DNA from: a virus
Lineage: Duplodnaviria; Heunggongvirae; Uroviricota; Caudoviricetes
IMG/VR virus record: IMGVR_UViG_2537561980_000006
DNA: 36,019 nucleotides
Strand: one strand, 5' to 3'
The translations under genes and the position numbers were made by a program. Of this stretch, positions 1 through 12,965 are shown one piece after another (position 1 is the first letter of the stretch; every line of letters starts with the position of its first letter). Under the pieces are notes generated by a model that did not search any database, was not told where the DNA came from, and saw nothing but the letters and a program-made list of their open reading frames with translations.

Positions 1-901
1 AGCAAAAACGACTTATGGTATTGCGAGCTTCAGTCGCACTACACGGTCGTTCTGTTACTCTTTATGAGAAAGCGTTCCCGCTTTCAGAGCAATGTTCAAA
101 GAAAGCTCATGACCAATTTCTAGCCGACCTTGCGAGCATTCTACCGAGTAACACCACACCGCTCATTGTCAGTGATGCTGGCTTTAAAGTGCCATGGTAT
201 AAATCCGTTGAGAAGCTGGGTTGGTACTGGTTAAGTCGAGTAAGAGGAAAAGTACAATATGCAGACCTAGGAGCGGAAAACTGGAAACCTATCAGCAACT
301 TACATGATATGTCATCTAGTCACTCAAAGCTTTAGGCTATAAGAGGCTGACTAAAAGCAATCCAATCTCATGCCAAATTCTATTGTATAAATCTCGCTCT
401 AAAGGCCGAAAAAATCAGCGCTCGACACGGACTCATTGTCACCACCCGTCACCTAAAATCTACTCAGCGTCGGCAAAGGAGCCATGGGTTCTAGCAACTA
501 ACTTACCTGTTGAAATTCGAACACCCAAACAACTTGTTAATATCTATTCGAAGCGAATGCAGATTGAAGAAACCTTCCGAGACTTGAAAAGTCCTGCCTA
601 CGGACTAGGCCTACGCCATAGCCGAACGAGCAGCTCAGAGCGTTTTGATATCATGCTGCTAATCGCCCTGATGCTTCAACTAACATGTTGGCTTGCGGGC
701 GTTCATGCTCAGAAACAAGGTTGGGACAAGCACTTCCAGGCTAACACAGTCAGAAATCGAAACGTACTCTCAACAGTTCGCTTAGGCATGGAAGTTTTGC
801 GGCATTCTGGCTACACAATAACAAGGGAAGACTTACTCGTGGCTGCAACCCTACTAGCTCAAAATTTATTCACACATGGTTACGCTTTGGGGAAATTATG
901 A
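1..901 (+). pseudogene. tnp: IS10 transposase, C-terminal ~300 codons, reading frame broken near 329-335
   Basis: Frame from nt 3 (..EQKRLMVLRAS..) hits TAG at 333-335; transposase sequence resumes in a different frame from 383 to stop 899-901. Segment lengths fit a 402-codon ORF missing one nucleotide. Confidence 0.75.
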
Positions 902-914
902 GGGGATCTCTCAG
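1..914 (+). mobile_element. IS10 (IS4 family) copy, left part cut by window edge; inside end at 914
   Basis: Transposase C-terminal coding sequence with DDE-type motifs (LIVSDAGF; YSKRMQIEETFRDLK = Y-2-R-3-E-6-K), then 13 nt ending GGGGATCTCTCAG, which matches the IS10 inside end as I remember it. Confidence 0.85.
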
Positions 915-1169
915 GATAAAGCTAGCATGCCAACGGTATACAGCGAGTCGCTCTTTGTGGAGGTGACGATTACCTAACAATCGGTCGATTCGTTTGATGT
1001 TATGTTTTGTTCTCGCTTTGGTTGGCAGGTTACGGCCAAGTTCGGTAAGAGTGAGAGTTTTACAGTCAAGTAATGCGTGGCAAGCCAACGTTAAGCTGTT
1101 GAGTCGTTTTAAGTGTAATTCGGGGCAGAATTGGTAAAGAGAGTCGTGTAAAATATCGAGTTCGCACAT
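915..1169 (-). pseudogene. tnp: IS10 transposase N-terminal fragment (85 codons), truncated at the IS junction
   Basis: ATG at 1169 (minus) encodes MCELDILHDSLYQFCPELHLKRLNSLTLACHALLDCK..WHASFI, then diverges where the other IS copy's end begins. Confidence 0.8.
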
Positions 1170-5009: not shown

Positions 5010-5420
5010 GTGGCAAAAGTTTTTACACAAGAAGAGCGAGAAAAAATTAAAGGGCAGGTTGTTGAACTCGTACGCCAGAGTGGGCGTGAGACGTTACGGC
5101 AACTGGAAGTCAAAACAGGTGCGACAAGATATCTGATGAGCGTTCTTGCCAGAGAGCTGGTTGCTAGTGGCGATGTATACAACTCTGGTTACGGGTTATT
5201 TCCGTCTGAACAGGCTCGTAAGGACTGGCAAAATGCCCGCAAAAAATTATCGAGGGCAAAGCTGAAGAAACCGGTTGTGGTTGATCCGGACCTTATCTGG
5301 TCATTACCTGACGGAGAAATACGTCGCTACGACAGTCGCCTAAACATAATCTGTCGCGAGTGCCGGAAGAGCGAAGTTATGCAGCGCATATTGTCGTTTT
5401 ATCAGGGGAATTTTCAGTAG
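5010..5420 (+). CDS. Hypothetical protein (136 aa)
   Basis: GTG start at 5010 with AGGAGGA RBS. Confidence 0.55.
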   Translation: MAKVFTQEEREKIKGQVVELVRQSGRETLRQLEVKTGATRYLMSVLARELVASGDVYNSGYGLFPSEQARKDWQNARKKLSRAKLKKPVVVDPDLIWSLPDGEIRRYDSRLNIICRECRKSEVMQRILSFYQGNFQ

Positions 5421-5489
5421 GTGGTGCTGTGAGTGAAATTAGCTATCAGGCTTCAATTGCCGCTGGCATTCGCATCAAAGGAGAGGAGC

Positions 5490-5846
5490 ATGGAAATAAA
5501 ACCAGAAGATGAGTTAAGTAATATTGTTTTATTTCCGGTAAAAGAGGATGACCCACGTAATCAGGTTAATTTTCTTTATGAGCCATCGGAAAGACCATAC
5601 TGCCATCACGCCTCTGTCCGGGTTGACGAAAAAGAGCGCCAGGTCCGCTGTAAAATCTGCGGTGCAGTTGTGGAGCCATTTGACTGGATGCTCTCTGTGG
5701 CGAAAAGAGAAACCAGGCTGGCAGATGATGTAAAGCTATTGCGCCAGGAGGAACAGGAAAGGCGGAAAAATATAGAAAAGTTAATTCAGATTGAGCGTAA
5801 CGCGAAAGCGCGGATACGCAGGGCGACAAAATCCATAACTGAATAA
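5490..5846 (+). CDS. Hypothetical protein with Cys/His cluster (possible zinc ribbon)
   Basis: ATG at 5490 after GGAGAGGAG RBS; CHH..C-x2-C motif (PYCHHASV..RCKICG). Confidence 0.5.
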   Translation: MEIKPEDELSNIVLFPVKEDDPRNQVNFLYEPSERPYCHHASVRVDEKERQVRCKICGAVVEPFDWMLSVAKRETRLADDVKLLRQEEQERRKNIEKLIQIERNAKARIRRATKSITE

Positions 5847-5970
5847 TTAAATTTAGCACTGTAAATAAAATCAAATCCTTAACCGGAGGGATTTCTGCAC
5901 CCTCAAATCATCCGGAGGCCGCCCGAAAGGGCGGTAATAAAAATGGCTGAACTAATCGGAGAATAAAACG

Positions 5971-6153
5971 ATGAAAAACCGTAAAGCAAAGATTCTGTTA
6001 GTTCGTAGAAACGCTCCTGGCGTCTGGCAGTGGGTGAGACTCAGCAACCGACGGATGGGGTTAATGAAACATTACGGGATGATGGATTGTGGTTTTTGCA
6101 AAAAGCCTACCGCGGCACAGAACAGGCGGAAGAAAGGGTACGCAGTACGATGA
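5971..6153 (+). CDS. Small basic protein, paralog A (60 aa)
   Basis: MKNRKAK.. ORF; its stop overlaps the start of paralog B (ATGA); shares SNRR and AAQNR motifs with B. Confidence 0.45.
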   Translation: MKNRKAKILLVRRNAPGVWQWVRLSNRRMGLMKHYGMMDCGFCKKPTAAQNRRKKGYAVR

Positions 6154-6341
6154 AAAACCGTAAAGCAAAGATGCTTATTTCCCGTGTATACAGACGTTGC
6201 CATCCCAGCCAGTGGTTGAGAGTTAGCAATCGCCGTGTGGTGTTGTACTTATATTCTGGAATTGCCAGAGAGGGAGTCAAAGATAAGCGCAGCGCGGCGC
6301 AAAACCGCTGGAAAAACCACTTGCGTACTAAAGGAGAGTGA
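6150..6341 (+). CDS. Small basic protein, paralog B (63 aa)
   Basis: Second MKNRKAK.. ORF; codon changes relative to A in the W-x-R-x-SNRR block are partly synonymous. Confidence 0.45.
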   Translation: MKNRKAKMLISRVYRRCHPSQWLRVSNRRVVLYLYSGIAREGVKDKRSAAQNRWKNHLRTKGE

Positions 6342-6342
6342 T

Positions 6343-6558
6343 ATGGCTATCGCTGCAAGTTACACCATGCATCTCTATTGTGATTGCCTCCAGTGTACAA
6401 ATGGCAAATATAAGTCGCCAGATTTTGGTGAGTATATCGGTACGTCATGGGCTGGCTGTGCAAAAGAGGCACGTAAAGATGGGTGGCGAATAAGCGCCGA
6501 CAAAACGCGTGCTTTTGCGCCAGGGCATAAAATTTTGAGGAGCAACAAAGGAGAGTGA
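6343..6558 (+). CDS. Hypothetical Cys-rich small protein (71 aa)
   Basis: ATG at 6343 after AAAGGAGAGTGAT RBS; C-x-C-x2-C cluster (YCDCLQC); the same RBS string recurs before the next gene. Confidence 0.5.
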   Translation: MAIAASYTMHLYCDCLQCTNGKYKSPDFGEYIGTSWAGCAKEARKDGWRISADKTRAFAPGHKILRSNKGE

Positions 6559-6559
6559 T

Positions 6560-6778
6560 ATGCCTACATTATTCAGAAAAGAATATCCGCGAAAAAGTAG
6601 AGCGACAGAATTTTTGTTTCTCATTCTGTTTATCGTGTTGATGATACCGATATCCCCGCTATTACTGGCCTGGATAATCGGAAAAGTAATTGAGCCCGTT
6701 ATTGAATTGTATAACGACGTTGTATGGGCCCCGTTCAACACACTGCACAATAAAATTAATCCGTATAAGGAAAACTGA
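6560..6778 (+). CDS. Hypothetical small membrane protein (72 aa)
   Basis: AAAGGAGAGTGAT RBS; long hydrophobic stretch FLFLILFIVLMIPISPLLLAWIIG. Confidence 0.5.
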   Translation: MPTLFRKEYPRKSRATEFLFLILFIVLMIPISPLLLAWIIGKVIEPVIELYNDVVWAPFNTLHNKINPYKEN

Positions 6779-6779
6779 T

Positions 6780-7043
6780 ATGGCAACTTTGACAAAAAAA
6801 GAACAGGCATGGTTGAACGAATTACAGGACGTCATTGATCGCTGTCCATCACCGAAAAAAATTGGCTTTTACACCATTGGCGATAAAAACATTTACCTGT
6901 ATGACCTACGCCGCATGGATGAAATCATGGAGGCTCTTGATAATCGTTCGTCGGTGGATTGGTGTGTTGCTGTTCATGATATGAATGCAGGGTTTGATGA
7001 AAAGATTTTGTTCCCCTCATCAGTTGAAAGCACTGCGGGTTAA
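6780..7043 (+). CDS. Hypothetical protein (87 aa)
   Basis: ATG at 6780 with AAGGA RBS, immediately after the upstream stop. Confidence 0.5.
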   Translation: MATLTKKEQAWLNELQDVIDRCPSPKKIGFYTIGDKNIYLYDLRRMDEIMEALDNRSSVDWCVAVHDMNAGFDEKILFPSSVESTAG

Positions 7044-7053
7044 GGAGTAACAC

Positions 7054-7398
7054 ATGACCACTTTTACCAGAGAGCAGTTAATAACTCACGCAGAGGAGAC
7101 TATTGAAGCACAGAGACTGTGCATACCAGGCACAATCGACCATGACATCATCCGCACATATAAAATGGATATTGCTGTTTTGGAAATCGCATTGGCATCG
7201 CTGGCAGCAGAGCCAGCCGGTAAATTGCATGAATACAAACCAGTGGGATATCAGCGTCTGGTCGACGAGTTAACCATGCTGGTAAAGCAGTTAACCTGGC
7301 AACTGAGGAAAGTGAAGCCGGACTGTAAATTGCCGGATAAGGCGATGGACTACCTGAAGCGGAACGAACTGATAAGCGCGGAGGATGTTTTGCGATGA
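7054..7398 (+). CDS. Hypothetical protein (114 aa)
   Basis: ORF with AAGGAG RBS (7043-7048). Confidence 0.55.
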
Positions 7399-7481
7399 CC
7401 TGGCCTGAAGCATTCACAACGGTAGGAATTGCAATGGCGGTGGCGCTGGTGGTGTATTCGATTTGCCGCTGGGGTTGACGA
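7395..7481 (+). CDS. Possible small hydrophobic peptide (28 aa)
   Basis: ATG overlapping the upstream stop; [27 protein letters not shown]; below the ORF-track size cutoff. Confidence 0.25.
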
Positions 7482-7504
7482 AAACGGAGGCACAAAGTTA
7501 TATT
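7475..7504 (+). promoter_or_regulatory. Candidate sigma70 promoter at the AT-rich island boundary
   Basis: TTGACG (7475-7480), 18-nt spacer, TATATT (7499-7504). Confidence 0.35.
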
Positions 7505-8825: not shown

Positions 8826-9085
8826 CTAATCGTTATGTCAATTAATTACAATAACGACTTATCATGGTGAGCAAAAACGGTTTGCGGGAAAAGGAGAGTT
8901 AAGTAGAATTGCTGCGGGTGCTTGAGGCTATCTGCCTCGGGCATGAACACCAAAAGGCAGATAGAGAAAAGCCCCAGTTAACATTACGCGTCCTGCAAGA
9001 CGCTTAACATTAATCTGAGGCCCAATCTATGTCTCACAAATGTAGGTTAGCCTCTTACGTGCCGAAAGGCAAGGAGAAGCAGGCT

Positions 9086-9241
9086 ATGAAGCAGCAAAAG
9101 GCGATGTTAATCGCCCTGATCGTCATCTGTTTAACCGTCATAGTGACGGTACTGGTAACGAGGAAAGACCTCTGCGAGGTACGAATCCGAACCGGCCAGA
9201 CGGAGGTCGCTGTCTTCACAGCTTACGAACCTGAGGAGTAA
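9086..9241 (+). CDS. Hok/Gef-family type I toxin (51 aa)
   Basis: MKQQKAMLIALIVICLTVIVTVLVTRKDLCEVRIRTGQTEVAVFTAYEPEE: single TM helix and the conserved Hok C-terminal region; in-frame upstream extension from 9029. Confidence 0.8.
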   Translation: MKQQKAMLIALIVICLTVIVTVLVTRKDLCEVRIRTGQTEVAVFTAYEPEE

Positions 9242-12655: not shown

Positions 12656-12731
12656 GGCCCTTTAGCTCAGTGGTGAGAGCGAGCGACTCATAATCGCCAG
12701 GTCGCTGGTTCAAATCCAGCAAGGGCCACCA
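12656..12731 (+). tRNA. tRNA with CAU anticodon (Ile2-lysidine type or Met)
   Basis: Cloverleaf folded by hand: acceptor GGCCCTT/AAGGGCC, loop CUCAUAA, T-loop TTCAAAT, 3' CCA; close to E. coli ileX-type sequence as I recall it. Confidence 0.8.
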
Positions 12732-12732
12732 G

Positions 12733-12809
12733 CCGCCACTAGCTCATCAGGAAAGAGCGTCAACCCTTTAAGTTGAGTGTGCGAGGTTCGAGTCCCCGGT
12801 GGCGGTCCA
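12733..12809 (+). tRNA. tRNA with UUU anticodon (Lys-like) and unusual C at position 33
   Basis: Acceptor CCGCCAC/GTGGCGG, anticodon stem TCAAC/GTTGA, loop CCTTTAA, T-loop TTCGAGT, 3' CCA. Confidence 0.6.
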
Positions 12810-12811
12810 GT

Positions 12812-12887
<76 letters not shown>

Positions 12888-12890
12888 TAT

Positions 12891-12965
<75 letters not shown>

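Follow-up and report, generated by a model that had tools for sequence, protein, structure and literature searches.

Ordered tandem cassettes of a small basic protein family, phrog_1380, in a lambdoid Escherichia coli prophage

The stretch of DNA analysed here (the window) is the 36,019-nucleotide (nt) IMG/VR virus record IMGVR_UViG_2537561980_000006, part of a lambdoid (Rac/Qin-like) Escherichia coli prophage. At positions 5971-6341 it carries two overlapping open reading frames (ORFs) on the + strand, A and B, which on sequence evidence are real genes and which belong to one uncharacterised family of small, highly basic phage proteins, phrog_1380. The copies of this family stand alone or in short arrays, in which the types of copy follow a fixed order and the C-terminal tail of each copy is set by its position in the array, not by its type. 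The family and its tandem paralogy are already recorded in RefSeq, in PHROGs and in the GenBank notes of phage phiV10; what is added here is the cassette order, the position-specific linker tail, the quantified selection on the protein, an α-β3-α model, and the prevalence of the family, including its presence in Shiga toxin (Stx) phages.

Gene A (5971-6153) encodes 60 amino acids (aa) and is a type-A cassette with the non-terminal tail RKKGYAVR, and gene B (6150-6341) encodes 63 aa and is a type-B cassette, last in the array, with the terminal tail WKNHLRTKGE. The initial annotation, made from the sequence alone, described them as a tandem pair of diverged paralogues, and this is borne out by the 49% identity between the two proteins (E = 4e-12, BLASTP) and by the match of both to phrog_1380; the repeat unit has a period of 179 nt. 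The 23 identical nt that had been noted from each ATG onwards are part of a 26-nt block, ACGATGAAAAACCGTAAAGCAAAGAT, made up of ACG, the MKNRKAK codons and the first two bases of the following codon. This block lies at 5968-5993 and 6147-6172 (+ strand) and has exactly two exact matches, starting at 5968 and 6147, with 0 expected from shuffled sequence. The common blocks MKNRKAK, W-x-R-x-SNRR and AAQNR are all found in both proteins. The SNRR motif, of which S and N are invariant throughout the family, is encoded at 6043-6054 in A (AGC AAC CGA CGG) and at 6225-6236 in B (AGC AAT CGC CGT), both on the + strand, so that the synonymous differences reported for this block amount to three in four codons. 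The inter-copy junction (6118-6153, + strand) comprises the QNR codons, the linker tail RKKGYAVR and a stop within ATGA; the stop codon of A (TGA, 6151-6153) lies on the ATG of B (6150-6152), which confirms the reported ATGA overlap at 6150-6153. Each cassette yields a product of about 7 kDa, and the basic character ascribed to the proteins is evident in a net charge of +16 and an isoelectric point (pI) of 11.7 for A and of +15 and 11.6 for B. A 103-aa ORF is also present at 6030-6341, which follows another frame of the 3′ part of A and runs straight into B (…EERVRST-MKNRKAK…). The same long form of B is seen in some database proteins (P0041, P0043, P0053), and it arises as a by-product of the conserved junction.

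Selection at the level of the protein was assessed on 157 related loci gathered from IMG/VR, GenBank phages and E. coli genomes and scanned with custom scripts, among which 110 distinct copies, defined by 300 nt of context, were recognised. The reading frames are intact in 108 of these (104 by a strict test, plus four with a MATNNRKAK start); one of the remaining copies is frameshifted and the other has lost its stop codon. Frame-breaking indels are therefore rare in related phages. The ratio of nonsynonymous to synonymous differences per site (pN/pS) is about 0.3 within each of the three main types of copy, namely 0.31 in A (n = 40 distinct sequences), 0.35 in B (n = 31) and 0.29 in C (n = 10). 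It is far from uniform along the protein, with values of 0.04-0.06 in the NRKAK block, 0.04-0.15 in the SNRR block and 0.18-0.31 in the K..QNR block, at a synonymous divergence of 0.2-0.9; for the SNRR block the lower value applies within types and the higher between types, at a pS of 0.26-0.94. The central segments show about 0.9 between types and 0.4-0.5 within types. Full invariance is seen for N, R, K and A of the N-terminal block, for the central S and N, for one Gly and one Lys, and for the Q, N and R close to the C-terminus, all of which are written with varied codons (for example AGC/AGT, AAC/AAT, CGA/CGC/CGT/AGA, GGG/GGA/GGT, CAA/CAG). Because the conserved blocks have accumulated many synonymous changes and almost no amino-acid changes, their codons indicate that they are kept as protein and not just as DNA, in agreement with the selection on the protein that had been suggested from the SNRR block.

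The statement that the family was not recognised proved correct in the sense that both ORFs match the PHROG family phrog_1380, to which no function is assigned. A aligns with E = 3.5e-36 (residues 1-60 on profile positions 1-60 of 62) and B with E = 2.5e-32 (residues 1-63 on positions 1-62 of 62), and both carry all the columns that are invariant in a 30-sequence alignment of the family, M1, R4, K5, A6, S25, N26, Q50, N51 and R52. The listed members include VT2-Sap08 of VT2-Sakai (ECs_1168), PhiV10p50 and p51 of phiV10, and WP_000797277.1 and WP_001384637.1; the last two are RefSeq entries, each named 'hypothetical protein', that are identical to A and B, respectively, and no difference separates the pair from the family. 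Since the phiV10 GenBank record already remarks that p51 resembles p50, the tandem paralogy itself is on record. No meaningful match to A or B was found in Pfam or NCBIfam, and no PADLOC model matched either at E ≤ 1; when these scans were extended to 30 family members, weak NdhS and Myb matches appeared in one to three of them (E ≥ 0.006). Searches of PDB sequences with A, B and the family profile gave no match, and the family is not mentioned in the literature searched by sequence strings, locus tags and accessions or in the supplements of a translatome paper on enterohaemorrhagic E. coli. A likeness between 'ILLVRR' and the N-terminal 'LILTRR' of CsrA was dismissed, as it lacks conservation in types B and C, has no Pfam hit, and falls where AlphaFold predicts a helix.

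The architecture of the family was read from 89 distinct arrays, of which 56 hold a single copy, 32 hold two and one holds three. Three main types are distinguished, C (…RLFLQRPVRVVELVISNHK…), A (…ILLVRRNAPGVWQWVRLSNRR…) and B (…MLISRVYRRCHPSQWLRVSNRR…), and their order is invariably C before A before B, in the combinations C-A, A-B, C-B and C-A-B. All non-terminal copies end in …QNR-R(K/E)KG(Y/N/D/G)AVR, commonly QNRRKKGYAVR, with the stop inside the next ATG, and all last copies end in …QNR-W(K/R/E)(N/K)H…, most often WKNHLRTKGE (terminal ending ...QNRWKNHLRTKGE). The tail thus depends on the place in the array: type A carries the linker tail in the window, where B follows, and the terminal tail in phages 933W and Sakai, where it is the only copy in the array. 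At each of the 34 inter-copy junctions the genes overlap by 4 nt, as ATGA, and the 36-nt junction sequence is almost invariant. In 72 of the 89 arrays, that in the window (5958-5961) included, the first copy is preceded by GGAG at a distance of exactly 9 nt, and internal copies lack GGAG, GAGG and AGGA within 20 nt before the start. This is the pattern expected of termination-reinitiation at internal copies. A dedicated linker of nine codons (R-KKGYAVR-stop) places the stop of each non-terminal cassette inside the next ATG, and because of the ATGA overlap and the lack of a canonical Shine-Dalgarno tetramer before internal copies, translation of B is probably coupled to that of A, as the initial annotation had suggested, and would depend on ribosomes terminating on A.

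The arrays also bear marks of rearrangement. In one chimera (P0022) the N-terminal half of a type-A copy is joined at SNRRMGL to another type, two fusions link family sequence with DUF4014 (P0024, P0025), and in a third (P0125) the N-terminus of type C is joined to phrog_926. The endpoints of chimeras, fusions and deletions fall within the conserved blocks, and for this reason the conserved ends appear to act as recombination sites as well. An origin of the linker tail from the 5′ flank, considered on account of an 'ERVRSK-M' sequence that precedes the P0006 and P0066 copies after Ead/Ea22 fragments, was rejected; read by hand in the frame of the family, this flank gives N-R-R-E-K-G-Y-A-V-R-stop and is what is left of an upstream cassette that was deleted.

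The setting of the pair can be read from the E. coli CV839-06 chromosome, to which positions 5850-6600 are 100% identical. Upstream of the pair the order in CV839-06 is repressor, cro-like gene, YdaT-family gene, replication protein, DUF977 and a hypothetical gene, and downstream it is a set of small hypothetical genes including DUF4014, followed by hokD, DUF968, rusA and Q. By this gene order the pair belongs to the nin-like accessory section of the early-right operon, with the replication genes before it and Q after it. The local genes lie tightly packed on the + strand, and a consensus scan of that strand over 5300-7500 revealed no promoter-like or terminator-like site. A and B would accordingly be co-transcribed genes of one small accessory family of temperate enterobacterial phages, and, being located in the early-right operon, would be made only after induction or infection.

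The clues to function that remain after the database searches are physicochemical. Across 49 diverged members the median net charge is +13 and the median pI 11.6, and the variable parts alone have a median net charge of +4, so that charge is conserved even though the sequence is not. On the basis of this strong positive charge and of the invariant Asn, Arg, Lys, Ser and Gln residues, we tentatively favour a nucleic-acid-binding accessory protein made early after induction, with a probability of roughly 0.35-0.4; the nucleic-acid-binding modulators considered in the initial annotation are thus still a reasonable guess. The three invariant polar and basic motifs, which are under strong purifying selection, would form a putative surface for the RNA or DNA backbone, and the variable core would tune specificity between paralogues.

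A structural frame for this proposal comes from prediction. AlphaFold2 gave a mean predicted local distance difference test score (pLDDT) of 57.8 for A (30 sequences), too weak to use, and of 78.3 for B (49 sequences; predicted template modelling score 0.51; five models at 73-78). The B model consists of a helix (4-13), three strands (20-26, 29-34 and 39-44) and a second helix (49-61), and both runs agree on the order α-β-β-β-α. In the model the N-R-K-A motif occupies the start of helix 1, S-N-(R/H)-(R/K) the end of strand 1 and the turn to strand 2, and K-x-S-A-A-Q-N-R leads into helix 2; the intervening strands diverge fast. Foldseek found no significant neighbour in the PDB for this predicted fold (best E 0.9), and the sole match in a BFVD fold search is a family member from phage Av-05. 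With moderate confidence, the proteins are predicted to adopt an α-β3-α fold that lacks a significant structural neighbour.

Several other explanations of the pair have to be weighed against nucleic-acid binding. It might be supposed that the ORFs are by-products and that what is conserved is the nucleotide sequence, as recombination linkers or an RNA element, and this would account for the identical 26-nt start block, the almost invariant 36-nt junction, the occurrence of the linker AAAGGAGAGTGATATG also at the next gene boundary, and the deletion and fusion endpoints that fall in conserved blocks (P0024, P0025, P0125). Such an explanation is hard to reconcile with block pN/pS values of 0.04-0.18 amid many synonymous changes and with the frames that are intact in all but two copies. 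The RNA-element variant was rejected, as covariance models of Rfam 15 gave no match at E ≤ 1 on either strand of 5800-6600 and the RNA fold of the junction is ordinary (z = -0.9), with no structure that would occlude the start. Conservation at the protein level therefore disposes of linker DNA and RNA element alike, and the codon data leave the by-product explanation largely refuted and very improbable. The same junctions could be taken to serve 1:1 synthesis of A and B as an obligate heteromer, either toxin-antitoxin-like or of two subunits, for which the presence of ATGA at every junction and the fixed cassette order can be cited. This is nevertheless improbable, because single copies are the commonest state, with type A as the lone copy in 933W and Sakai and type B as the lone copy elsewhere, and each type must then function in the absence of the other; the A-B, C-A and C-B combinations are, moreover, all found.

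The main rival to nucleic-acid binding is a role in early host takeover or counter-defence through binding to a host protein, the fast core and the paralogue arrays reflecting an arms race with variable host targets. The central segments that change at a pN/pS of about 0.9 between types while the ends stay fixed would fit such a role, as would the multiple paralogues and chimeras such as P0022, the location among exo-xis and nin accessory genes, which are non-essential modulators (PMC8614690), and the behaviour of the array as a free-standing module with varied neighbours in lambdoid, epsilon15-like and P1-like phages. Within types, however, purifying selection still acts on the middle segments, and the between-type values, being near saturation, do not demonstrate positive selection; furthermore, no PADLOC model is matched, and the conserved net charge, +13 to +16, is one more often met in nucleic-acid binders. 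A host-protein binder is on balance somewhat less likely. Another explanation, in which the proteins are divergent HicA-like or double-stranded RNA-binding domain (dsRBD)-like RNA-binding proteins or RNases of about 60 residues, draws on the same predicted order of elements, on size and basic character, and on the S-N-H of type C, which is reminiscent of the G-S-(N)-H of HicA. A dsRBD contacts RNA through helix 1, the β1-β2 turn and the start of helix 2, and the conserved motifs of the family lie in these three regions. The likeness is topological only, however: none of 30 members matched Pfam HicA (PF07927, E ≤ 5) or dsrm, hhalign of the family profile with E. coli HicA gave a probability of 0.3%, no dsRBD superposition was obtained, and neither fold is among the structural matches listed. 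The candidate site for the catalytic His, which in HicA lies in strand 2, is the position after S-N, where types A and B have Arg and only type C has His, and the neighbouring genes (phrog_926, DUF4014 and others, varying by phage) include no HicB antitoxin-like partner. Identity with HicA or the dsRBD was rejected on these grounds, and even a divergent relationship is very improbable.

A broader proposal would see in phrog_1380 a fold-orphan class of cationic early proteins, organised in ordered and coupled C-A-B cassettes with a linker tail on the non-terminal copies. If this were true, the hypervariable β-sheet core would give each cassette its own nucleic-acid or host target, and the array would be a modular host-takeover or counter-defence battery; we regard this as quite doubtful.

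The family is tiny and of narrow taxonomic range, it is carried by temperate enterobacterial phages, and the neighbours of its arrays vary. In a word-indexed search over 5.8 billion clusters A had 40 matches and B had 67, and an exhaustive hidden Markov model search of 1.84 billion representatives returned 52 clusters and nothing beyond the family itself, the weakest being low-complexity or multi-stretch matches in long proteins. Named sources are nearly all Escherichia, Salmonella, Citrobacter, Phytobacter or their phages. In GenBank phages, tblastn found 144 records, in which the annotation is always hypothetical or absent; they include Stx1 and Stx2 phages, phiV10, O157 typing phages and HK225, as well as the P1-like phages RCS47 and D6, Salmonella phage Solent and Yersinia phage vB_YpM_39. 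Megablast detects the family in 647 of 5426 complete E. coli genomes, and 44% of the places are on plasmids. The only match among the species representatives of GTDB is a 228-bp contig (JQCU01000388.1) in an Acinetobacter idrijaensis assembly, on which one type-C copy precedes the beginning of a second and which would be the sole C-C tandem; judged by its size and sequence, it is probably contamination of E. coli, enterobacterial or phage origin, or else a collapsed repeat, and lends no support to a family outside the Enterobacteriaceae.

The array follows the replication genes in the window and in phiV10 and lies between ea22 and xis in 933W and Sakai, where the family member stands in the exo-xis region directly downstream of an ea22-like gene (ECs_1168 in Sakai). 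In 933W (AF125520) the 62-aa family ORF, at 2514-2702, is unannotated, and the L0068 coding sequence (2632-2919) represents phrog_926, the next gene downstream, with its N-terminus extended so as to overlap the family ORF in a different frame.

Downstream of the array the neighbour is phrog_926 in about 30 of the 89 arrays, a 171-aa protein in 24, and DUF4014 or others in the rest, and this variation identifies the array as a free-standing module. In the window it is the phrog_926 gene (6343-6558, + strand), whose product of 71 aa is Cys-rich and has no assigned function or Pfam family; its C-x-C-x2-C…C pattern suggests a small metal-binding protein. The boundary with gene B is formed by the linker AAAGGAGAGTGATATG (6330-6345, + strand), which holds the KGE codons and the stop of B together with the Shine-Dalgarno sequence and ATG of the next gene. 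This 16-mer recurs exactly at 6547-6562, at the end of the next gene, with 0.01 matches expected; since it is shared by the first two boundaries, the KGE-stop codons double as the Shine-Dalgarno sequence of the following gene. A third TGATATG stop/start junction is located at 6776-6782, so that three consecutive boundaries are alike, and they look like the conserved linker sequences of mosaic lambdoid phages.

Upstream of gene A lies an intergenic leader of 124 nt (5847-5970, + strand), which contains the Shine-Dalgarno GGAG 9 nt before the ATG of A and a GC-rich hairpin at 5918-5935 (GCCGCCC-GAAA-GGGCGGU) that is not followed by a U-run. Its RNA fold has an energy of -31.4 kcal/mol (z = -1.9), and it has no Rfam match. 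The leader is dispersed, being present in 1582 of the 5426 complete E. coli genomes (megablast) at up to five places per genome, mostly beside prophage genes (DUF7167, DUF4014, Q), and could be a conserved prophage spacer or a terminator-like element.

Elsewhere in the window, a full-length match to the Rfam family RNA-OUT (1162-1231, + strand, 98.8 bits) adjoins ORF fragments in 383-1240, of which we take 870-1169 (- strand) to be the N-terminal part of the IS10 transposase and 383-901 (+ strand) its C-terminal part; together they suggest a rearranged IS10 remnant. The gene for the small RNA DicF (1422-1473, - strand, 76.7 bits) lies about 200 nt from this remnant. A match to the sok antitoxin RNA (8916-9091, 120 bits) is found beside hokD, and a cluster of four tRNA genes (12656-12962) is located in the late-regulatory region of the prophage.

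Taken as a whole, phrog_1380 is ordinary phage dark matter with a tidy architecture: it is common, catalogued and devoid of detectable relatives by sequence or predicted fold. The finding will not surprise phage genomicists and opens no long-standing question. Its interest lies on the one hand in the position-dependent tail and the fixed order, which offer a clean small example of conserved gene ends driving duplication, deletion and shuffling. On the other hand, the exo-xis region affects lysogeny and prophage induction in Stx phages (PMC3824215, PMC10789677), and a conserved phrog_1380 protein in that region is therefore a reasonable candidate modulator.

Two further known systems are close enough to the family to be compared with it. 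The small proteins of the lambda exo-xis and nin regions (Ea8.5, Orf60a, Orf61, Orf63, Orf73 and Orf55) share with it a non-essential early-operon niche and a size of 55-95 aa (PMC8614690), and presumably early expression. They differ in that there is no kinship in sequence or predicted fold, and in that phrog_1380 proteins are far more basic and are arranged in tandem arrays with overlapping stop and start codons. The second comparison is with the linkers of mosaic lambdoid phages. Recombination at conserved linkers is the classic picture of lambdoid mosaicism; the modular theory of these phages is reportedly that of Susskind and Botstein, and boundary sequences are said to have been reported for HK620 by Clark et al. 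in 2001. Here, too, short exact gene-end sequences (TGATATG with AAAGGAGAG upstream, and QNR...ATGA) are common to otherwise unrelated neighbours, and the endpoints of deletions, fusions and chimeras fall in conserved gene ends. In contrast to simple linkers, however, the ends of phrog_1380 genes are also selected as protein, with synonymous variation across the family, and are thus more than sites of recombination.
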